IMG/VR virus record: IMGVR_UViG_3300037471_001733
Location: 1-22,200 of that record
DNA: 22,200 bases
Source: a virus
Taxonomy: Duplodnaviria > Heunggongvirae > Uroviricota > Caudoviricetes
Strand: one strand, 5' to 3'
Positions within the stretch are counted from its first letter, which is position 1. Each line of letters begins with the position of its first letter. Both the position numbers and the translations under genes were made by a program. The notes under the pieces are model-generated. The model worked only from the letters and a program-made list of their open reading frames with translations, was not told where the DNA came from and did no database searches. Shown here piece after piece: positions 2,301 to 17,846 of the stretch.

Positions 2301-2924
2301 ATGGAGCACACATTAAGCGTGGGCGAAGCGGCGGAAATGCTGGGCGTCACGGTCAAGACGTTGCAGCGATGGGAGCGCGAAGGGAGGTTGATCCCGCACG
2401 CACGCACGCCCACGGGCCGACGCCGATACACCGAGGTGCAATTGCGCGAGTTCATGGGCATCAAGCATCCGGCAGCCAAGCGCAAGGCCGTGGCCTACTG
2501 CCGCGTTTCCAGCGCAGCGCAGAAGCCCGACCTTGCCAACCAGCGTCGCGTGCTGGAGGAATTTGTCGCGGCGCGGGGCTTGGCGAATGTCGAGTTCATA
2601 GAGGAAGTCGGGGGCGGACTCAACTTCTCGCGCAAGAAGTTCCTTGCGCTGATGGACGCCGTGGGGCGCGGCGAAGTGGCGACGTTGGTGCTGGCGCACC
2701 GCGACCGGCTCACTCGCTTTGGCTTCGAGTGGTTCGAGCACTTTGCGCAACTGCACGCCTGCGAAATCTTGGTGCTCAACCAGGAGCGGCTGTCGCCGGA
2801 AGCCGAGATGGTGCAAGACCTCATGACCATCGTGCACTGCTTCTCGTCGCGCCTGTACGGGCTGCGCAACTACCGGCGCAAGCTGCAGGAAGCGCTGGGG
2901 CAGGATTCCGCTGGGGAGCAGTGA
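2301..2924 (+). CDS. tnpA: IS607-family serine transposase TnpA, 207 aa
   Basis: N-terminal MerR-like HTH (LSVGEAAEMLGVTVKTLQRWEREG, GRRRY), serine recombinase motif AYCRVSS, and DRLTRFGF. Confidence 0.95.
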   Translation: MEHTLSVGEAAEMLGVTVKTLQRWEREGRLIPHARTPTGRRRYTEVQLREFMGIKHPAAKRKAVAYCRVSSAAQKPDLANQRRVLEEFVAARGLANVEFIEEVGGGLNFSRKKFLALMDAVGRGEVATLVLAHRDRLTRFGFEWFEHFAQLHACEILVLNQERLSPEAEMVQDLMTIVHCFSSRLYGLRNYRRKLQEALGQDSAGEQ

Positions 2925-4228
2925 TGCAACTCGCCCACCGCATCGCCCTGGACCCCACGCCCGAGCAGCGCGAGTATTTCCAGCGCGCAGCAGGCACCGC
3001 TCGCTTCGTCTGGAATTGGGCGCTGGCCGAGTGGAACCGGCAGTACGCGGCCGGCCAGAAGCCAAACGCCAATGCCCTCAAGCGGCAGTTCAACGCCATC
3101 AAGTACACCGAGTTCCCATGGCTCGTAGACGTGCACCGCGACAGCCACGCACAGCCCTTCGCCAATCTCGCCAAGGCGTGGACCAAGTTCTTCAAGGACA
3201 TCCGCGAAGGCCGCGAGGCCCACGCGCCGCAGTTCAAGAAGAAGAACAAGAGCCGCGCATCTTTCTACGTCGCCAACGACAAGTTCGCCATCGACGGCAT
3301 GAGCGTGCGCCTGCCCATGGTGGGTCGCGTGGTGATGCGCGAGGCCCTGCGCTTCGAGGGCAAGGTGATGGCCGCGAGCGTGAGCCGCACGGCGGATCGC
3401 TGGTTCATCGCCTTTCAGGTGGATGTGCCCGACGCGCAGTTCTATCGCAAGCGCACCGGCCACGGCACGGTGGGCGTAGACCTGGGGCTGAAGGCCGCGG
3501 CCACACTGTCTACGGGCGAATCCATCCAGGCGCCCAAGCCATTGCGCGCGGCGCTGCGCCGTCTGCAAATCCGCCAACGGCGCCAGTCGCGCAAGATCGA
3601 GGCGGCCAAAGCTGCCGCAGGCATCAAGGGCAAGCGTGTCCCGAAAGGCGCACGACTGGAGAAGTCCAACAATTTCAAGAAGTCATCTGTCCCGTTGGCG
3701 CGGCTGCACGCGCGCATCGCCAATGTGAGAGCGGATTTCCTGCACAAGCTCACGACCCGTCTCTGCCGCGAAAACCAAGCGGTGGTGATCGAGGACTTGA
3801 ACGTGAGCGGCATGCTCGCCAACGAGAAGCTAGCCCGCGCCATCAGCGATGTCGGCTTCTTCGAGTTCCGGCGGCAACTCACCTACAAGGCTGCGCGCTA
3901 CGGCACGCGGCTGGTGGTGGCTGACCGCTGGTTCCCGAGCAGCCGACTGTGTTCGGCGTGCGGATGGAAGAACGAAGCGCTCAAGCTCAAGGACCGGGAA
4001 TGGGTCTGCTGCGGTTGCGGCAGCATCCACGACCGGGATGTGAACGCGGCGCTTAACCTCAAACGGCTCGCAACCGAAACTGCGCTACCCGTGGCAAGTG
4101 CGTCCGGCAACGGCGCTGCTGCGGCAGGGATGGTCCCTGCCGTGGTCGGGGAAGTCACGCCTGTCAGGCACGAGGCGGTCAGTAAGACGGCTCGGGGCAG
4201 GAAGAAAACTCCGCGCACTTGTGCGTAG
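2924..4228 (+). CDS. tnpB: IS607-family RNA-guided nuclease TnpB, 434 aa
   Basis: Start at ATG 2924 (MQLAHRIALDPT..AGTARFVWNWAL), coupled to the tnpA stop. RuvC motifs VGVDLG, VIEDL and HDRDVNAA are intact. Zn ribbon CSACG/CCGCG. Confidence 0.95.
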   Translation: MQLAHRIALDPTPEQREYFQRAAGTARFVWNWALAEWNRQYAAGQKPNANALKRQFNAIKYTEFPWLVDVHRDSHAQPFANLAKAWTKFFKDIREGREAHAPQFKKKNKSRASFYVANDKFAIDGMSVRLPMVGRVVMREALRFEGKVMAASVSRTADRWFIAFQVDVPDAQFYRKRTGHGTVGVDLGLKAAATLSTGESIQAPKPLRAALRRLQIRQRRQSRKIEAAKAAAGIKGKRVPKGARLEKSNNFKKSSVPLARLHARIANVRADFLHKLTTRLCRENQAVVIEDLNVSGMLANEKLARAISDVGFFEFRRQLTYKAARYGTRLVVADRWFPSSRLCSACGWKNEALKLKDREWVCCGCGSIHDRDVNAALNLKRLATETALPVASASGNGAAAAGMVPAVVGEVTPVRHEAVSKTARGRKKTPRTCA

Positions 4229-8632: not shown

Positions 8633-11600
8633 TCAGTCTGCGGCTCGGGTTTGGATTGCGTCGCCTTCAGGCATGGCTCGCTCGATGAGCTTGGCCGTCT
8701 TCGCCGCGTGGATGGCATTGGCCCGAGCTGCTTCAATCAGGTCGGCGACCTGTTCGCGCAGTGCCGCGACTTCGGCTTCCAGCGCCGAGGTGTCCAGCAG
8801 CGACTGCGTCTGCTGGTTGTTGAAAATCCGGGACGGCGGCGTGTACTCCAACTCCGGCCCCGCTTCGCCGACAACACGCCAGCCGCCGACGTGATCGCCG
8901 CCAGTAGCGAAGCCGGGCACCTTCAGCGCCTTAAGCGTGCTGGTGAGGCTGGCCGCCAGCGATGCACGGATTGACGCCACCTCCGCAGCACTGCGAGCCG
9001 TGGCCGTCAGCGCTTCCTCTACCGCCTTGCTCAACCCAGGCAACTCTGACAACGCATCCTTGTCGCCGGCACGTGCCGCTGCGGTCTTGATGGCGAATTG
9101 CGCCTGTGTCGTTGCAGCGTCCTTGTCGGTCGCGCCTCGCAGGCGAGCAATCTCGTCAATGACCCCCTTGGCTTGGTTCTTCAACTCGTCTGCCGCGTCG
9201 GCAATCTCGCCGAATACCGGCGCGAGTTGCAGCAGCGACAGGTACATCTTGCGGCCCGCTTCGGTGTTGAGGTTTTGCGACTCCACCAGCTTTCGATAAG
9301 CGGCAGCGCTCGTCGGCACGGCGACGTTGATCTCCTTGAACGCCTGGGCCAGCACCTTCTGCCGCACGGCAAGCTGTTCGCTGTCGGTGTAGATCGCCTG
9401 GATGTAGCCCTGCACCAGGCTGGCTGCGTTTGAAGCACCACCAACGGCGCGCGTCAGTGCGATGAACTGATCTGTAGTGATGTTCAAGGCCGGCGCCAGC
9501 GCCTTCGACGCATCGCTGATGGCCTTGATTTCGGCCACGACCTGGTTGATCACGTCAATGCCAGCCGAGTCACCGACAGACTTCAGAATTTCGTCAGCCC
9601 AGCCAGGCAGGTCTGCGGCAATCAATGCGTCGCGCACGGTCTTGCCGGCCTGGGTGGCGAACTCCTCAAATCCCTTCTGCGGGTCGCTGTTGAAGTTGCG
9701 CGAGTCTAGGTTGGCCAGCACGCGGCCGTTTCTGCCGACGATGCGCAGGCCAGCCCAGGAGTCATCGTCGTTGTCGGACGCAAACTTGCCGGTGACCGTC
9801 GCAGCCCCGAGGCCGAACGAGGTCAGTGCAGCGCCGATAGTGGAGGCCACTCCAGTGACAAGCGATTGCACGCTCTTGTCGACGTCGGCGCTGCGGTCGC
9901 TGCGGAATGCACCACTCTCAAGGCCGAAGCCTGGGGTGTTCGCAGCGTTCGCCAGTCGGCCACCAGCCAGGAAGTCGGTGGAGACGGTAAAGGCGCCGCC
10001 GCGGTGCGGGGTGCCGCCACCACCGAAGGCGCTATCAAGTAGGCCGCCAATGGTTCCACCGATCATCCCGCCGATAGGGCCGAAGAACCACGTACCAACA
10101 CCCGTACCGATGGCCGAGCCCCATCTGCCCTGAGTAGCAGAGTAAAGCGCACTCGCATATCCAAGGCCGTTGCCGATATTGCCAATCGTGTTGGAGTTGT
10201 TGATCAGGAATTCACCGGTCCCGGTAAAGCCGTTGCTGATGGCCTGGAACCCAGCGCCTTCGACGGCACCAGAGAAGTTGCTAAGCCACGGCAGCGAGCC
10301 GAGGCTGCGGCTCATGTTGGCAAAGCTGGCGATGTTTCCTGCCGTACCTAACAGGGATGAGCCACCACCACCGTCAGAACCATTGCTGCCACCGAACAGC
10401 GCGCCGGCAATAGCGCCGGTCACGGGCTGCATAACGGCCTGGATGACCGGCCTGAGCACCATGCTGCGGAACAGGCCCTTGATGTAGTCGGCGCCGGACT
10501 TGCCGCCTTCCATCAGTGCATTGGTAAGCGCCTGGCTGACCTGGTCGGTGGTCTTTTCCCACTCAGACAGGAATACCCTGCTCTGCACCTGCTGCGCCTG
10601 AAGCTCGGCGTTCTCAATGGCCTGCGTCTCTTGCACAGAGTTCGCGCCGAACTTGCTGCGAATCTCCTGCAACTGCTTTTCCAGGGCGATCTGGATCTTC
10701 AGTTTCTCGGATGCAACCTGCCGCGCTTCAGCGGAAGCAAACAACATCGAAGCCTGGAGGTCGAGCACACGGTTCTCGTCCTTGATGGCTTGAAGGTCTG
10801 CCAACTGCTGGTTGAAGTACTCGCGGCGCGCGTCAGAGTCGGCGGTGTTGGCCTTGATGATGTCGTTCTGATATTCCTCGTACTGCGCCGCGAGGACAGC
10901 CTTTACGGCCTTCTCTCGCTCGTAGTCGAGCCTTATCAGTTCGTTCTTACCTTTGATGGACCGCGTGGTGATCTGGTCCTCAATCTCGGCGGCTTGGCGC
11001 GTCAGAGCAGCGGCTTCGCCCGTCGCATCCTTCTTCTTGGCAACAAGCGCGGCCTCCTTGAGCAGCGCATCGCGGCGCGTTTCCAGCGCACGCAGATCCA
11101 GGCGCGTGTTTTCCTCAATCGATTCACGCTCGCTGAGTTGGCCAGTGGCGCGCCGCAGGGCAACGTCCTCCTGCGAGCGCTTGATGACCTCCAGCTTTTC
11201 CTTTTCTGCCTGCTTGACGGCTTCGACCTGGGCGCGAGTTGCGTCATTGAAAGCGGTCTGCGCGCCGCTGTTGGACTCCTTGAACCTGTCGCGGAGTTGG
11301 TCATATGTCTGCTGGTAATTCTTCAGCAGTTCATCGCGCACTTTCGGATCGGTCAGCGGATTGGCAATTGCCTTGGCGATCGGACCCATGGTGTCCCGGA
11401 TCGCCTTGTTGAGCTGATCAGTCTTGGAGAGGTTCTTGTTCTGCAGGTCAATGGCCGCAGCAGCATCCTTTTCTGCCTGCGCACGGTTGGCTGCTGAGGT
11501 GGCGCGCTGGGCTTCTTCATCCGCAGCAATGGCAAGCGCAGCCTCCTGACGCTTCAAGTCCGGTAGTTGTGCGCGTGCTTCGGCATTGCCGCCAAAGCGA

Positions 11601-13744
11601 CTCGGATTGAATGGCTGTGACGTGGCATTGCTGATCTGCTGGCGGACGGTATCCAGCATTTCCTCGGTCGTCTGCACGCGCCCGATGCGCAGCACGAAGT
11701 CAATGCCTTCGCTACCCTTTCGCTTGAGCGTGTCCCACCAGCGCTCCAGGGTGCCGAAGTGCTGCGCTGCGTCCTGCAGCCGCGTGTTCAACGCGTCGAA
11801 TGTCTTGGCCAAGGCCTCCTGCGTGCGACCCTGGTCCTCCATCGCTTTGATCTGCTGGAGTTGGGCTGCCGTCAGGAAGTTGTACTGCTTGTTCAGCTCA
11901 GCGGCAAACTTCGCCGGTGCTTCGGCCGCGCCCGCAAAGCGCTTGGCCACAGCATCTGCGCCCTCGCCAGTGACCTTGCTGAAAAGCTGCGCGGCACTGG
12001 CGGCCGATTGAAGCGTTTGCCCCGTGAGTTGGCCGCTGGCAACTAGGGCTTGCAGAGTCCCGCGCGTGCTGCCTATCGTCGTCTCGGTCGCTTCCGAGAT
12101 CGACCGGGCCATAGCGTTGTACTGGCCTTCGGTAAGTCCAGCAGCATTCCCGGTGAGAGTAATAGTTCTCGCGAACTCAGCACTTTGGGCCGAGCCCTTC
12201 GCATATGCTGCAGTCAAGCCGGCGACCGCCGCAGTAGCCAAGACCACCGGGTTGGTCAAAAGGCTGAGAAATCCAGCCGCAAGCCCCTTCAGCGCGCCGC
12301 CTACGCTGCCGAAGATGTCGCGCAACTGGCCGCCTTGCTGGATCAAGATGGTGAACGGGTCCGTTCCCATCTGCAGTTGGGTGATGATGTCCGTGATCTG
12401 AGGAGCCACCAGCGCCATCTGCTGCGCGGCCAGACGGCTTTCCTTGCCGACGCCGGTGAAGCCCTTTTCTGCCTTGGCGAGCGCATCCAGCAGCGGTTTC
12501 GCTTCATTGGTCACGCCGAGCATGGCGGCGCGCTGCGCAAGCAGGTCGTAGGTACTCTTGGTTCCTAGGTCAAGTCGCTGCCGCAGTCCCTTGATGAATT
12601 CTTCGCCCTTCGCCGCCTGTGCGGCGTCAATCTGGGCCTGCTTCAGTGCTTGGAACTTCTGGATCTGTGCTTCGGCAGCAGCCCCGACGCCGGCCAAGCT
12701 GGCCTGAAGGCGCTTCTCAGCCACCTCCATCTGCAGCAGTTCAGACGCATTCTTGTTGGCGGCAACAGCTTGCCGCTCCAACGCCGCGACCTGGGAATCC
12801 AGGGTGACCTGGAACGCCTGCCCCGATTTCGCCTGGGCTGCGTCAATCTGCGCTTGCTTGAGAGCCTGGTACTTCTGGATCTGCGCCTCAGCCGCCGCGC
12901 CAGCCCCTACAAGGGCGGCCTCCTGACGCTTCTCGGCCACCTCCAGCGCCAGCAACTCCGTCGCCGACAGCTTGGCGGCAGACGCTTGCTTTTGCAGGGC
13001 TGCGACTTGCGCGTCAATCGAGGACTGGAAGTCATCCGCGCCCTTAATCTTCGATGCACCAGATAGCGTCGCCTGCTGGATGGCCGCCACTTGTGCTTGA
13101 GCTTGCGCAAAAGCCTGCTGGGCAGATGCCAGTGCAGTAGCAGCGGCATCCTTGCCGGAACCGCTCCTGTGCGCCGCAGCCACGGCATCAATCGCCTTGA
13201 CCAACTCCCTTTGCGCTTCGACCAGCCGTTGCGTGGCCTGAGTCTGAGAGTTGCGCTGCGCAGTCAGAAAATCCTGTGCTGCTTGGCGTTGATCTTGACT
13301 GCGCAGTCCGGCCAACTCGCGCTCAGCCGTCGCCAACTGCTTGGCAGTTGACTCCAAGGTCTGCTGAGCGCGGGCGGCAGAGTTCCCGCCAGCCTCTATC
13401 TGCCGGAGCGCATCAATCCACGGCTTCAGAGCCGCAGCATTCAAGCCACGCGCGGCACCAAGTCGCTCGGCCAGGTCAGCCTCAAGGCTGCCCTTCATGC
13501 CGTTGCTGATCTCGGCCATGGACCGCTTGATGCGCGACACAAGGCTGGCGGTGGATGCGTCCAGATTGGCGCTGGCCTTGCCGCCGGCTTCGCCAATCTG
13601 TCTGAGTCCGGCCGCACTGGCATCGCCAGCCTCTTTGGCGGCTTGGCCAAGCGAGGCCAGATCGCGCTTCATGGCGTTGATGGCGCCTCCAACGCCATCA
13701 GCCGAGACGCCAAACTCCAACTGGCCTTTCAGTTCACCCGCCAT
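8633..13744 (-). CDS. Tape measure protein, 1703 aa
   Basis: Long Ala/Gln-rich helical ORF after the chaperones. QITDIITQL..G..PFTILIQQGGQLRDIFG motif, TLTGNAAGLT motif, Gly-rich hydrophobic segment, C-terminal GFATGGDHVGGWRVVGEAGPEL. Confidence 0.95.
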   Translation of the reverse strand: MAGELKGQLEFGVSADGVGGAINAMKRDLASLGQAAKEAGDASAAGLRQIGEAGGKASANLDASTASLVSRIKRSMAEISNGMKGSLEADLAERLGAARGLNAAALKPWIDALRQIEAGGNSAARAQQTLESTAKQLATAERELAGLRSQDQRQAAQDFLTAQRNSQTQATQRLVEAQRELVKAIDAVAAAHRSGSGKDAAATALASAQQAFAQAQAQVAAIQQATLSGASKIKGADDFQSSIDAQVAALQKQASAAKLSATELLALEVAEKRQEAALVGAGAAAEAQIQKYQALKQAQIDAAQAKSGQAFQVTLDSQVAALERQAVAANKNASELLQMEVAEKRLQASLAGVGAAAEAQIQKFQALKQAQIDAAQAAKGEEFIKGLRQRLDLGTKSTYDLLAQRAAMLGVTNEAKPLLDALAKAEKGFTGVGKESRLAAQQMALVAPQITDIITQLQMGTDPFTILIQQGGQLRDIFGSVGGALKGLAAGFLSLLTNPVVLATAAVAGLTAAYAKGSAQSAEFARTITLTGNAAGLTEGQYNAMARSISEATETTIGSTRGTLQALVASGQLTGQTLQSAASAAQLFSKVTGEGADAVAKRFAGAAEAPAKFAAELNKQYNFLTAAQLQQIKAMEDQGRTQEALAKTFDALNTRLQDAAQHFGTLERWWDTLKRKGSEGIDFVLRIGRVQTTEEMLDTVRQQISNATSQPFNPSRFGGNAEARAQLPDLKRQEAALAIAADEEAQRATSAANRAQAEKDAAAAIDLQNKNLSKTDQLNKAIRDTMGPIAKAIANPLTDPKVRDELLKNYQQTYDQLRDRFKESNSGAQTAFNDATRAQVEAVKQAEKEKLEVIKRSQEDVALRRATGQLSERESIEENTRLDLRALETRRDALLKEAALVAKKKDATGEAAALTRQAAEIEDQITTRSIKGKNELIRLDYEREKAVKAVLAAQYEEYQNDIIKANTADSDARREYFNQQLADLQAIKDENRVLDLQASMLFASAEARQVASEKLKIQIALEKQLQEIRSKFGANSVQETQAIENAELQAQQVQSRVFLSEWEKTTDQVSQALTNALMEGGKSGADYIKGLFRSMVLRPVIQAVMQPVTGAIAGALFGGSNGSDGGGGSSLLGTAGNIASFANMSRSLGSLPWLSNFSGAVEGAGFQAISNGFTGTGEFLINNSNTIGNIGNGLGYASALYSATQGRWGSAIGTGVGTWFFGPIGGMIGGTIGGLLDSAFGGGGTPHRGGAFTVSTDFLAGGRLANAANTPGFGLESGAFRSDRSADVDKSVQSLVTGVASTIGAALTSFGLGAATVTGKFASDNDDDSWAGLRIVGRNGRVLANLDSRNFNSDPQKGFEEFATQAGKTVRDALIAADLPGWADEILKSVGDSAGIDVINQVVAEIKAISDASKALAPALNITTDQFIALTRAVGGASNAASLVQGYIQAIYTDSEQLAVRQKVLAQAFKEINVAVPTSAAAYRKLVESQNLNTEAGRKMYLSLLQLAPVFGEIADAADELKNQAKGVIDEIARLRGATDKDAATTQAQFAIKTAAARAGDKDALSELPGLSKAVEEALTATARSAAEVASIRASLAASLTSTLKALKVPGFATGGDHVGGWRVVGEAGPELEYTPPSRIFNNQQTQSLLDTSALEAEVAALREQVADLIEAARANAIHAAKTAKLIERAMPEGDAIQTRAAD
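12624..13032 (-). repeat. Tandem 216-bp (72-aa) internal duplication in the tape measure gene
   Basis: gcgtcaatctg at 12624 and 12840. Protein units ...EVAEKRQEAALVGAGAAAEAQIQKYQALKQAQIDAAQ and ...EVAEKRLQASLAGVGAAAEAQIQKFQALKQAQIDAAQ. Confidence 0.85.
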
Positions 13745-13747
13745 CAG

Positions 13748-15066
13748 AAATCTCCGAGGAACTTCCCATTAACGGGGAGGAGGTAACGAGTGCGCCCGCA
13801 GGGCGCAGGATATTCGGTTGACTTACGAACAATTCCAGACTTTTACACGCTTCGCGTGTATCGTCTGAGCCATGGAAATCAAGCGTGCCTTCCGCTTCCG
13901 CTGCTATCCGTCGCCGGATCAGCAGGTGGTGCTGGCGCGCACGTTCGGCTGCGCTCGATTCGTCTACAACCACATGCTGCGGCTTCGCACCGATGCGTGG
14001 TTCCAGAAGCAGGAACGGGTTGGGTATCACGAAACCTCCGCTGCGCTCACGGCGCTGAAGAAGCAGCCGGAACTGGAGTGGTTGAACGAGGCAAGTTCGG
14101 TGCCGCTGCAGCAGTCGCTGCGGCACTTGCAGACTGCGTTCACCAACTTCTTCGCCAAGCGGGCGGCATACCCGTCGTTCAAGTCCAAGCACGACAAGCA
14201 GGCGGCTGAGTACACGACCAGCGCCTTCAAGTGGGACGGCAAGGCGCTGAAGCTGGCGAAGATGGACACACCGTTGCCAATTCGCTTCTCGCGCACGATC
14301 CCGAAAGCGGCCAAGGTCACGACTGTGACGGTCAGCCGCGATGCGGCGGGCCGGTACTTCGTGTCCATGCTCTGCGACGACGCGGTGGAAGCACTGCCAG
14401 CTGCCGAGTCCAAGGTCGGCATCGACCTGGGGCTCACGCACTTCGCCATCCTCTCCAGTGGCGAGAAGATCGACGCACCGAATGCCTTCCGCAAGAACGA
14501 AGCGAAGCTCGTCAAGCTGCAGCGCAGACTGGCGAAGAAGGTCAAGGGCTCCAAGAACCGCGCGAAAGCACGGCTCAAGGTAGCCAGGGCACACGCCCAC
14601 ATTGCCGACGCCCGCAGGGACTTCCTGCACAAGCTCTCGACAAGGCTGATACGCGAGAACCAAGTGATCGCCGTCGAGACGCTGGCCGTCAGCAATATGA
14701 AGAAGAACCGGTCCCTGTCCAAGTCCATCTCGGATGCGGGCTGGGCCGAGTTCCTGCGCCAGTTGGAATACAAGGCGCAGTGGTACGGGCGCACGCTGGT
14801 CGGCATCGACCGGTGGTTTCCTTCAAGCAAGCGATGCAGCGACTGCGGGCATACCGCAGCCAAGATGCCGTTGAAGGTGCGCGAGTGGACCTGCCCCGAG
14901 TGCGGCAGCATCCACGACCGCGACGTCAACGCTGCGCGCAACGTTTTGGCCGCCGGACTGGCGGTGTCAGCCCATGGAGAAGCGGTAAGTCCTGTCTGCA
15001 TTTGATGCTGGTGGGCTCGGTTCTGCGAAGTGGGAATCCCCGTCCTTCAGGGCGGTGAGCGGTCAA
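13748..15066 (+). mobile_element. IS200/IS605-family element, tnpB-only (IS1341-type), 1319 bp
   Basis: Right end GAAT-CCCCGTCC-TTCA-GGGCGGTG-AGCGG-TCAA (15034-15066). Left flank TCAG (13744-13747) followed by GAAC and a shortened hairpin (13759-13779). No TSD and no tnpA. The empty site reconstitutes a TGATG gene overlap. Confidence 0.88.
13872..15005 (+). CDS. tnpB: RNA-guided nuclease TnpB (IS609/InsQ-like), 377 aa
   Basis: KRAFRFRCYP..Q...LARTFGCARFVYN HTH. RuvC motifs VGIDLG, IAVETL and HDRDVNAA are intact. CSDCG/CPECG Zn ribbon. Confidence 0.96.
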   Translation: MEIKRAFRFRCYPSPDQQVVLARTFGCARFVYNHMLRLRTDAWFQKQERVGYHETSAALTALKKQPELEWLNEASSVPLQQSLRHLQTAFTNFFAKRAAYPSFKSKHDKQAAEYTTSAFKWDGKALKLAKMDTPLPIRFSRTIPKAAKVTTVTVSRDAAGRYFVSMLCDDAVEALPAAESKVGIDLGLTHFAILSSGEKIDAPNAFRKNEAKLVKLQRRLAKKVKGSKNRAKARLKVARAHAHIADARRDFLHKLSTRLIRENQVIAVETLAVSNMKKNRSLSKSISDAGWAEFLRQLEYKAQWYGRTLVGIDRWFPSSKRCSDCGHTAAKMPLKVREWTCPECGSIHDRDVNAARNVLAAGLAVSAHGEAVSPVCI

Positions 15067-15086
15067 TCCTGGTGCTCACGCATGGC
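14930..15086 (+). ncRNA. Putative omegaRNA of the IS1341-type TnpB; guide begins at 15067 (TCCTGGTGCTCACGCATGGC). 5' boundary approximate
   Basis: Established TnpB architecture plus a recognisable right-end hairpin ending in TCAA at 15066. Confidence 0.55.
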
Positions 15087-15371
15087 GGCCAAGCCGGCCG
15101 CTTCCATCGCGCGGATGTCTTCAAACAGAACGTCGAACTCTTCGTCAGTCAGACGCATGCGCGCCATGTGAGTCAGAACGACGTTGTGGTCTAGGGCGTA
15201 GTGGCCGCCCATGCTGGTGCGCCACTGATTGCGCACGAGGTCGAAGAGGCGGAAAGCCTGCAGGTTTTCCGGCCAAACTTCGACAGGTTCAGGCTCGTAG
15301 TCCTCGGCGGACAGACCGGAGCCTTCAAGAGACTTGGCGGAAGGTGGCTGCCAGCACAGCACCTTCGCCAA
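15063..15371 (-). CDS. Second tail assembly chaperone ORF (DUF1799-like), probably made as a frameshift fusion
   Basis: VEVWPENLQAFRLF...NQWR....G.YALD motif. TTG start without a clear SD; lies in the -1 frame of the upstream chaperone. Confidence 0.85.
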   Translation of the reverse strand: MAKVLCWQPPSAKSLEGSGLSAEDYEPEPVEVWPENLQAFRLFDLVRNQWRTSMGGHYALDHNVVLTHMARMRLTDEEFDVLFEDIRAMEAAGLAAMREHQD

Positions 15372-15376
15372 GGCCT

Positions 15377-15853
15377 TCAGTTTCCCAGGCGGCCCTCTTT
15401 CAGCGCACGGTTGTATGCGTCAGCAATCGCAGCCGCAGCGCCAGGGAAGCGGTCAACCAACTGCAGCACGTTCTCGCGGTCGAACGCATCGGCAAGCTCC
15501 CAACCCTCTGCTGCCGACAGGATGTAGTCCGCATGCCCCTCGTTGATGGCCATGGCGAACTCGGCCTCGGTCGGAGGCTTCGGAGGCTCCACAACAGGCT
15601 CAGCAGCAGCCGGCTTGCGGCCCTTCTTCGCAGGCGCCTCAGCAGCAGCGGCTATCGGCGTCTTGATCCGGTCCACAAGCGCATCAATACGCGCGCGCGA
15701 AGCGGTCGACTGATCGTCAGTCATTTGCGCAAGCTCAGTCCGCGTGCGGTACTTGAACGTGAACTCCAGCGCGTCTGGCTCGCCGCCGGGCACAGGAATG
15801 TCAACGCTCAGTTTGAAATTGGCCGGGCGCTTGCCGAGGGTGATCTTTGCCAT
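15377..15853 (-). CDS. Tail assembly chaperone (gpG-like), 158 aa
   Basis: MAKITLGKRPANF..V.IPVPGG....LEFTFKYRTR, and GWELADAFDRENV.QL...FPGAA.AI..AY..AL..GRLGN. ATG 15853 chosen because the longer start runs through a terminator. Confidence 0.88.
   Translation of the reverse strand: MAKITLGKRPANFKLSVDIPVPGGEPDALEFTFKYRTRTELAQMTDDQSTASRARIDALVDRIKTPIAAAAEAPAKKGRKPAAAEPVVEPPKPPTEAEFAMAINEGHADYILSAAEGWELADAFDRENVLQLVDRFPGAAAAIADAYNRALKEGRLGN
15380..15386 (-). promoter_or_regulatory. Programmed -1 ribosomal frameshift site GGGAAAC
   Basis: CTG GGA AAC TGA at the chaperone end (X XXY YYZ). The -1 frame reads AAA CTG AAG GCC TTG GCG, continuous with ORF 15063-15371, as in lambda G/GT. Confidence 0.85.
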
Positions 15854-15875
15854 TGTGTTGTCGTTGAGTAGGAAC

Positions 15876-15909
15876 AAAAAAAGCCAGCCGGGAGCTACCG
15901 CGGCTGGCT
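15876..15909 (-). terminator. Intrinsic terminator-like hairpin
   Basis: 9-bp stem AGCCAGCCG/CGGCTGGCT followed by a T run on the minus strand. Confidence 0.65.
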
Positions 15910-15960
15910 GTGTAAGCCCGGTGCCCACGCACCGGGATGGCGTGCATCGTGAGATGCATG

Positions 15961-16022: not shown

Positions 16023-17087
16023 TTAGGCTTCGGCGACTTCTGTCTCAGCCTTAGATGCAGCTTCCGCTGCGGCCTTGGCGGCTTCCTTCGCCGCCTTGTT
16101 ACGGGCTCGCGTCTCAGCACACTTGGCTAGGCGGGCGGCCTTCACTTCCGGGTCTGCCCATGCGGCTATCACTTTGGCTGTCGGCTTGGGGACGTGCTGC
16201 GGCTTTATGAGGCCGGCAGCTTCCGCTTCAGCCTTCTTGCGGGCGCGCGTGGCAGCGCACTTCTCCAGGCGAGCAGCCTTCTTCTCGGGATCATCCCAAA
16301 TGGACTGCGTGTGCCGCCTCCGCACCTCGCGCTCTTCATCCGACAAGCGTTTCTTCTCTAGCCTGAACTGCTCCCAATACTTCCTGGAAGCCTCTAGTGT
16401 TTGCTCTCGGCCTTCTTCCGACCAATTCTTCGGCTTGCCTTTCATCGCCTCTGAACGCTTTCGCTTCTGCTCCTCGCTCATTGGAGCGCGAGTTTTGCCG
16501 GCGTTCGCGGCTCCGATCTTGGCCTTCCGCTCCGCAGGCATCGGCCCCATCTTCTTGCCGAGTCTCGCGGCCCTCAATTTGGCTGCGTGCTCTTCCGTGA
16601 TTGGGCCGCGTTTCTTGCCGATCCGCGAGGCCGACATCTTCGCCCTCGTTTCTTCCGAGGGCACATAACCCTTGTGCGAATCAGAGAGCTTTCGCCTGTG
16701 CTCTTCAGAAAGCGGCTTGCCGCGTAAAGCCTGAGCCCTACGCTCTATAGTTTCCGCATGCTGCCTACCGGAGCCGCCTCCAGCATTTAGGTTGTATCCC
16801 TTGCTTTTATTGCGGGTGTCATAGAAGTTGATGAACTCGACCTCTTTCTCGTTGAGTTCATCTTTGTTTGACGCCTCAAAAATAACCTTTATCTCAAACG
16901 CCTCTACACCATATTTGGCAATTGAGTTTTTCAGCCTTCGGCATCCGGTGCTGTCTCTGATGTGTTTCCGCCACCTGCTTTTGACAGAGCCCACGGTCTG
17001 CCCTATGTAGCGCTTGCCAGTCACCACGTTGGTGATCATATAGATCACGCCGTAGGGCTTCGGTCGTGTAGAATCCGCGCCAGCCAT
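16023..17087 (-). CDS. Free-standing GIY-YIG homing endonuclease with NUMOD3 repeats, 354 aa
   Basis: GVIYMITNVVTGKRYIGQT, conserved R (SRWRKH), E (LNEKEVEFI) and GYN. Multiple SEE(H/T/Q)R.K(L/M)S...G.K repeats. The catalytic-domain DNA is AT-richer than its neighbours. Confidence 0.9.
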   Translation of the reverse strand: MAGADSTRPKPYGVIYMITNVVTGKRYIGQTVGSVKSRWRKHIRDSTGCRRLKNSIAKYGVEAFEIKVIFEASNKDELNEKEVEFINFYDTRNKSKGYNLNAGGGSGRQHAETIERRAQALRGKPLSEEHRRKLSDSHKGYVPSEETRAKMSASRIGKKRGPITEEHAAKLRAARLGKKMGPMPAERKAKIGAANAGKTRAPMSEEQKRKRSEAMKGKPKNWSEEGREQTLEASRKYWEQFRLEKKRLSDEEREVRRRHTQSIWDDPEKKAARLEKCAATRARKKAEAEAAGLIKPQHVPKPTAKVIAAWADPEVKAARLAKCAETRARNKAAKEAAKAAAEAASKAETEVAEA

Positions 17088-17198: not shown

Positions 17199-17846
17199 TT
17201 ATGCTGAATAGCGCGTGTGCCTGGAATTTCCGTTTACGACTGCCGAGATGCGATTTATCTGACCTTCCGTCAGACGCGGCACATCATTCAAAGCGACACG
17301 GCCCGGGATATATACCCGCGAGCCATTGCGCAGGAGCATTTTCAGAACCGTATCGGACTGCACGTCGGTCAGGCTGCGCAGCGCGGTATACCCAGCCGTG
17401 GTGTCGTCGTCGTCCAATTCCAGGGTGTACGACGTCGGGGTGAAACCGTCATTAATCGAAAATTCTGTATCATTTTCGAGATATTTGTAAGTAACAGTTT
17501 TCGGATCGCCGCCCGAAGTTTGCGGGTTCATGATCTTCGTGAGCTGCACCCAGGTCGTGACCTTGCGCACCGTGCCAGCGCCGCCGCTGGCGGGATACGT
17601 GGTCGTGCTGCTGGTGTCCAGATTGACCAGCGTGAACGTGGTGGACGTCACGGCACCGATCTCGAACACCCGCTTGGTAACGCGACCCCAGCCGTTGGTG
17701 ATCTCCACCACATCGCCGTTGGAGTAGCTGTGCGCCGTGGAGGTCGTGACGACTGCGGTGGAGGCGTTGCTGACGCCAGTCACGGTGAAAGACGAGCCGA
17801 AGGCGGTTGCCACACTGAAGGTGGTCCCGGTAGGTACGTTAGCCAT
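17199..17846 (-). CDS. Major tail tube protein (Phage_tail_3-like), 215 aa
   Basis: MANVPTGTTFSVAT, H...NGDVVEIT.GW, G.G..RKVTTWVQL..I.NPQTSGGDP...TY.YLE and LKMLL.NGS..Y.PG.V.LN..P motifs. Confidence 0.9.
   Translation of the reverse strand: MANVPTGTTFSVATAFGSSFTVTGVSNASTAVVTTSTAHSYSNGDVVEITNGWGRVTKRVFEIGAVTSTTFTLVNLDTSSTTTYPASGGAGTVRKVTTWVQLTKIMNPQTSGGDPKTVTYKYLENDTEFSINDGFTPTSYTLELDDDDTTAGYTALRSLTDVQSDTVLKMLLRNGSRVYIPGRVALNDVPRLTEGQINRISAVVNGNSRHTRYSA

Follow-up and report, generated by a model that had tools for sequence, protein, structure and literature searches.

The natural point of reference for a TnpB nuclease is ISDra2 of Deinococcus radiodurans, whose target-adjacent motif (TAM) is TTGAT. 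The element considered here is a relative found in the DNA of a tailed virus (Caudoviricetes): a stretch of 22,200 nucleotides, positions 1 to 22,200 of IMG/VR record IMGVR_UViG_3300037471_001733, called the window throughout and part of an 87.8-kb provirus record. At 13745-15066 on its plus strand lies a 1322-bp element of the IS200/IS605 type (IS1341-like) without tnpA, its right end exact and its left end placed by homology. The element runs antisense to the tail operon, with the tail assembly chaperone's DUF1799 extension on one side and the tape-measure gene on the other. With ISDra2 TnpB (structures 8h1j, 8bf8, 8exa) it shares the RuvC D-E-D motifs, the zinc ribbon, and a presumed right-end guide RNA overlapping the 3' end of tnpB. 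It departs from ISDra2 in lacking tnpA and in belonging to a family whose target is TCAT.

Three other systems help in reading the ends of the element. IS608 of Helicobacter pylori, whose right-end guide is GAAT, resembles the right end in the window in having that guide 5' of a hairpin and TCAA as the cleavage site; it differs in carrying tnpA and in its target, TTAC, which is 19 nt from the hairpin, as against TCAT about 16-17 nt away here. In IS608 the cleavage sites are read by the four nucleotides that lie 5' of each hairpin foot (PMC3201880). ISGst5 of Geobacillus stearothermophilus, also an IS200/IS605 element, has the TAM TTCAT, close to the TCAT of the window's family, but it encodes IscB rather than TnpB, resides in another host, and is not reported to favor start codons; the observations made on it fit a model in which the nuclease cuts the empty site and thereby restores the element (Meers et al., bioRxiv 10.1101/2023.03.14.532601). 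In Gifsy-1 (NC_010392; L216 682-1975) the gipA (TnpB) element belongs to the same family as the element in the window: over the final 175 nt the two are about 74% identical, up to a TCAA that both have and where the match stops. It too sits antisense in a tail operon, where its TCAA gives gpZ a stop codon, the ATG of gpU is the target, and AAGGAGG stands 7 nt upstream of that ATG. Gifsy-1 differs in having a true ATGA overlap, a fully silent change of CGA to CGT, and a left hairpin of 20 bp, whereas the window has CCAT and a decayed left hairpin.

I propose that a non-autonomous element, made up of tnpB and a right-end scaffold, was inserted 3' of a TCAT-type target in an ancestor of this phage and now occupies 13745-15066, and I consider this explanation probable as a whole. 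Taken by itself, it is an unremarkable TnpB insertion sequence of a known class. Its tnpB (377 aa, 13872-15005, plus strand) encodes an intact RuvC D-E-D set and a zinc ribbon, scores above the Pfam cut-offs for OrfB_IS605, Cas12f1-like_TNB, and HTH_OrfB_IS605, and is matched over its full length by ISDra2 TnpB (8h1j, 8bf8; E 4.6e-84), with GIDLG, AVETL, and HDRDVNAA kept. The provirus record of 87.8 kb contains no match to the Y1 transposase gene tnpA (PF01797). This absence defines the non-autonomous subtype and is no bar to membership in IS200/IS605. Both ends have subterminal hairpins, and there are no terminal inverted repeats.

The right end is where structure is conserved. A consensus fold of 25 copies gives the last 210 nt (14857-15066, plus strand) 41 pairs, 17 of them with compensatory changes, and the right hairpin is included in the fold. 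Its parts in the window, on the plus strand, are GAAT at 15034-15037, the hairpin at 15038-15057, the linker AGCGG, and the terminal TCAA at 15063-15066. The stretch is conserved in enterobacterial copies, as judged by BLAST, and a search of Rfam with the right-end RNA returned no matching family. A shared fold of this kind fits a guide-RNA scaffold, which this region (the omega-RNA of other TnpB systems) is presumed to be. Since the right boundary is confirmed and the layout of TnpB and its omega-RNA is known, the flank from 15067 would template the guide: 15067-15086 (TCCTGGTGCTCACGCATGGC), plus strand, whose opposite strand makes up the 3' end of the chaperone extension gene. A guide of this length, used in this way, would be expected from that layout.

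The left end is in poorer condition. Aligned by eye to its relatives, the left subterminal structure (13758-13779, plus strand) consists of GGAA followed by a hairpin, CTTCCC / ATTAAC / GGGGAG, which forms only 4-6 bp and does no better than shuffled sequences (DNA fold z-score +1.25); the hairpin has 8 bp in one related copy, L097, and 20 bp in Gifsy-1. Another copy (L004 / L092) has no left hairpin at all. In it an identical run of 12 nt, TTCGTGTCTCCG, comes after the left TCAT, about 120 nt upstream of tnpB, and again just after the right TCAA, as though the left end had given way to a second copy of the target flank.

Much of this was anticipated by an earlier sequence-only reading of the window, whose cited letters are all in place (TCAG at 13744-13747, TCAA at 15063-15066, GAAC at 13759-13762, CTCC at 13752-13755). 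It had described a TnpB element without tnpA, a left hairpin that looks shortened, a guide-templating flank beginning at 15067, a stop codon donated to the chaperone by the right end, and a GGAG donated to the tape-measure gene by the left end, and on each of these points the analysis agrees with it. It placed the left boundary and the TAM about 3 bases away, a matter taken up below.

The boundaries were drawn from a comparison of TnpB relatives, 12 viral and 20 bacterial, mostly from Burkholderiales, with 70-81% amino-acid identity. The relatives, more than 30 in number, all finish with GAG-C-A-G-TCAA or something very like it, beyond which their sequences no longer agree, and BLAST matches to enterobacterial copies stop exactly at 15066. 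By this comparison the right boundary is confirmed at 15066. For the left end and its target, 30 related copies were tabulated, the window included. Ahead of the conserved left end, 25 of them have the four nucleotides TCAT, four have CCAT (the window, L006, L013, and L110), one has TCAA, and none has TCAG.

Uninterrupted sites settle what these four nucleotides are. For the insertions of L097, L098, and L103, such sites are available in sister Paraburkholderia and Caballeronia genomes. In the first two cases TCAT is joined directly to the right flank, so the C-A/T-G that follows TCAT in the filled sites must belong to the element. The L103 sites agree, except that six nucleotides, CTTCAT, are present in all nine empty sites and missing from the filled one; the empty sites (L207-L215) have CTTCAT in tandem, and the filled site (L103 1385-1390) has one copy fewer (MKMK.. 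as against MK..). The filled site of Gifsy-1 reads CTCAT, then the element from CAGAATGCCTCC to GCAGTCAA, then CGTG, and its element-free relative Fels-1 (L217 431-434) reads TTCAT directly followed by CGGG, with gpZ and gpU overlapping by ATGA. As judged by these sites, the family inserts directly 3' of TCAT, with no duplication of the target, and its elements begin C-N-G.

In the window the first bases from 13745 are CAGAAATCTCC, and their CAGAAAT-CTCC resembles the CAGAATGC-CTCC of Gifsy-1, where the boundary is validated. By homology, then, the left end is very probably 13745 and the local target is CCAT (13741-13744, plus strand), in place of the family consensus TCAT. The complement of CCAT, ATGG, holds the start codon of the tape-measure gene, which appears as CAT at 13742-13744 on the plus strand. 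Directly beside its 8-bp stem the family has the tetranucleotide GAAA at the left end and GAAT at the right end, and the window's homologue on the left is GGAA (13758-13761). If GAAA and GAAT are fed into the pairing rule that the sequence-only reading had itself borrowed from IS608, the predicted sites are TCAT and TCAA. An inspection by eye for covariation between left guide tetranucleotide and target across the copies gave inconsistent results, GAGA occurring with both TCAT and CCAT, and was not used to place the boundary.

What did the insertion do to the genes on either side? The tail assembly chaperone upstream is of the gpG/gpGT type. Its 'G' part (Phage_TAC_4 by Pfam, 15377-15928, minus strand) ends in the heptamer GGGAAAC (15380-15386) and then TGA, reading CTG GGA AAC TGA, and the -1 frame is open across this slippery site, through PPGKLKALAKVLCWQ, into the 'T' part, the DUF1799 frame (Pfam DUF1799; 15063-15371, minus strand). 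Heptamer and stop are kept in the window and in all ten relatives, with GGGAAAT in L084 and TAG as the stop in L086. Phage lambda is alike in having a slippery GGGAAAC at the end of G and a -1 frame that continues just before the tape-measure gene; the window differs from lambda in that its domains are of the Phage_TAC_4 and DUF1799 families. DUF1799 is thus best read as a frameshift extension of the chaperone, with the frameshift predicted, and few ribosomes would reach its end. In the relatives, gene-calling programs place the start of DUF1799 at an internal codon, giving products of 66-105 aa.

In its present, filled state the chaperone frame ends CAC CAG GAT TGA, that is, HQD and a stop, and the element's terminal TCAA contains this TGA (15063-15065). 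Among the chaperones of other phages, ten homologues terminate at the same aligned residue, with H[KQR][DE] and a stop, and therefore the filled state is silent at the level of protein. In uninterrupted relatives the native junction reads GAY TGA, then 2-10 nt, then ATG; none of them has a TGATG overlap, and AAGGA lies within the last codons of the chaperone gene. With no overlap of stop and start, and with few ribosomes finishing DUF1799, there would have been little translational coupling to lose, and the suggestion that the GGAG of the left end makes up for lost coupling is not supported. The cost of insertion, as judged from these relatives, is instead the ribosome site embedded in the last chaperone codons.

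Seamless antisense insertion at gene junctions is a habit of the family rather than a peculiarity of this copy. Because TCAT is the complement of ATGA, the target usually holds a start codon on the opposite strand, and often an overlapping TGA as well; because TCAA is the complement of TTGA, the right end re-creates the upstream TGA in frame. In the empty sites of L098 and L103, as in Fels-1, two genes do overlap by ATGA, and there the sole effect of insertion is to turn the final sense codon from NNA into NNT (ACA to ACT, GCA to GCT, and CGA to CGT among L098, L103, and the Gifsy-1/Fels-1 pair). The stop supplied by the element ends real genes in L098, L099, L103, L102, L109, and L008, where Pfam domains reach the C-terminus, and gpZ of Gifsy-1 stops on the element's TGA too. 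On the other side, reading frames that begin at the target ATG are real gene starts in eight of the ten tested, with Pfam profiles beginning within the first 10-77 residues. These Pfam checks of gene starts and ends replaced two others: the length of reading frames from the target ATG (78% observed against a background of 38%), a weak test in GC-rich genomes, and a test of upstream stops, which proved uninformative. L008 is the only copy with TCAA as its target; the complement, TTGA, supplies a TTG start to the downstream reading frame, a phage lysozyme gene ends on the TGA of the element, and the junction reads identically with or without the element.

For the window's own insertion there are several points that count against a simple history. 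Joining 13744 directly to 15067 gives CAG GAA TGG..., which would extend the chaperone by five residues, to ...HQEWRVN, before a stop, and none of the ten homologues shows such an extension. CCAT is a minority target in the family. The one join that gives the canonical HQD and stop in a single step is a different one, 13747 to 15067. Finally, no empty site for this insertion was found in the viral and metagenome contigs searched: a protein-guided search of viral contigs with the chaperone produced no relatives, a degenerate pattern of the empty site had no matches in viral contigs, and a looser pattern, applied to metagenome and viral contigs, gave chance matches, with chaperone, tape measure, or TAC_4 at none of the at least 240 loci listed.

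Since the simple join lacks the canonical stop, one must suppose an atypical ancestor or else a further small change, of about 6 nt, after the insertion, and the exact pre-insertion sequence of this phage would depend on which. That the boundary is 13745 but the present junction took two steps is a serious possibility, held tentatively. Insertion could have occurred at TCAT, from a chaperone stop that read GAA TGA (as it does in L085), a deletion of about 6 nt then moving the tape-measure ATG up to the left end; or CCAT could have been the site, the native ..TCAG beside the right end being lost afterwards. Either route explains at once the left junction of the family type and the canonical stop after aspartate, and the filled site of L103 has likewise come to be without the six nucleotides found in every one of its empty sites. 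It is a good deal to ask, nonetheless, of an extra event that it have exact end points, leave no direct trace, and proceed by no known mechanism.

The second question concerns the GGAG (CTCC on the plus strand), a Shine-Dalgarno-like motif at 13752-13755 on the minus strand that the left end places 7 nt upstream of the tape-measure ATG. Its pairing with the tail of 16S rRNA (the anti-Shine-Dalgarno sequence, ACCUCCUUA) has a computed energy of -6.6 kcal/mol. At 3-10 nt from the junction ATG, 20 of the 30 left ends have a motif of the GGAG/AGGA type, as compared with 5.6% of random 20-mers. In several empty sites the native GAGGA, 7-8 nt upstream, falls in the right flank, and so the element displaces the native ribosome site. 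It may well be that GGAG now drives translation of the tape-measure gene.

An alternative view is that GGAG is no working ribosome-binding site, that CTCC is kept for the transposase and for recognition of the end, and that translation of the tape measure uses something else or drops. CTCC adjoins the left guide and hairpin, and it could be transposition, not translation, for which it is conserved; it stands at a fixed distance from hairpin and guide but anywhere from 2 to 9 nt from the ATG. Moreover, the ten copies without a GGAG-type motif include L008-L010, which also sit on gene starts. Set against this is that the motif is kept despite differing left-end surroundings, as AAGGAGG in Gifsy-1 and CGGAG in Burkholderiales copies, and that in the window the native site is displaced by 1.3 kb, with no other Shine-Dalgarno-like motif before the tape-measure ATG. 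On balance the alternative seems rather unlikely. The broader idea, that the ends of these elements have been shaped for translationally seamless antisense insertion, TCAT keeping the ATG, TCAA restoring the TGA, and the left end bringing a working Shine-Dalgarno sequence, is attractive, and I offer it as a conjecture.

There remains the boundary of the sequence-only reading, in which the element is 13748-15066, was inserted 3' of TCAG within a TGATG overlap of stop and start, so that the uninterrupted junction was ...GCCATCAG-TCCTGG..., and has TCAG as its TAM. This is very improbable: the join does read CAC CAG GAC TGATG and recreates HQD and stop in one step, most uninterrupted relatives do have TCAG (from GAC TGA) as the four nucleotides before their TCCT.. 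flank, and L012, with CTCC only 2 nt from its boundary, gives precedent for a shorter left end, but G occupies the fourth target position in none of the 30 copies and not in Gifsy-1, every validated boundary lies directly after CAT, the CAG of the window would match the commonest first three bases of the element by chance, no relative has TGATG, and the GAAC offered as a guide predicting TCAG is one base out of the register in which family guides abut their stems. Of the claim that the chaperone ends in HQD both with and without the element, the filled half stands, and the empty half is as improbable as the TGATG overlap it needs. The junctions of relatives differ from the one it proposed, and other copies define a different left end.

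Returning to insertion at 13745, the proposed course of events runs as follows. The element would have entered antisense at CCAT, the complement of the ATGG of the tape-measure gene, leaving the ATG in place, and the family's left end would put GGAG 5-9 nt from it as a replacement for the displaced ribosome-binding site. Late transcription of the operon would run straight through, since no terminator-like site was found on the minus strand within the element. Ribosomes that have shifted frame would stop on the element's TGA, completing the chaperone extension, and new ribosomes would load at the element's GGAG to make the tape measure. If TnpB is active with a TCAT-type TAM, it and the right-end RNA would cleave sites of that type whose sequence agrees with the flank, and retention or homing would be favored. 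Transposition would require TnpA in trans, and efficient mobility is unlikely in view of the weak left hairpin, so spread may be by homing or by mobilization in trans.

The surroundings of the element suggest a place that selfish genes find hospitable. The window carries a siphovirus tail module on its minus strand: the tail tube (17199-17846), a GIY-YIG/NUMOD3 homing-type endonuclease (16023-17087) between tail tube and chaperone genes, the chaperone with its extension, and the tape-measure gene (8633-13744; 1703 aa, Pfam TMP_2), whose N-terminus, MAGELKGQ, is common to relatives. Relatives differ in what they have at the spot between tail tube and chaperone, a GIY-YIG gene in L088, an Endonuclease_7 gene in L086, and nothing in L085, and it is on this ground that the tail module may be said to collect selfish genes. 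A second mobile element, of the IS607 type, occupies 2301-4228 on the plus strand; it has a serine recombinase (2301-2924) with MerR HTH and Resolvase domains, whose TGA shares bases with the start ATG of another tnpB (about 2925-4228), longer than the one at 13872-15005.

A search of the literature found no paper that joins TnpB, TAM, and TCAT, with TTCAT appearing only as the IscB TAM of ISGst5, and none that describes a habit of seamless insertion at start/stop junctions. The target of the family, fixed by real empty sites, is TCAT rather than TCAG. Between them, the target and the two ends keep both neighboring genes translatable, which would explain how such elements persist in operons of essential phage structural genes, and genome annotation will come across stop codons and ribosome sites that are in fact part of a mobile element. 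If the ends are indeed shaped for this purpose, then TnpB elements would colonize the tightly packed operons of phages and bacteria almost free of cost, the gipA element of Gifsy-1 being one case.

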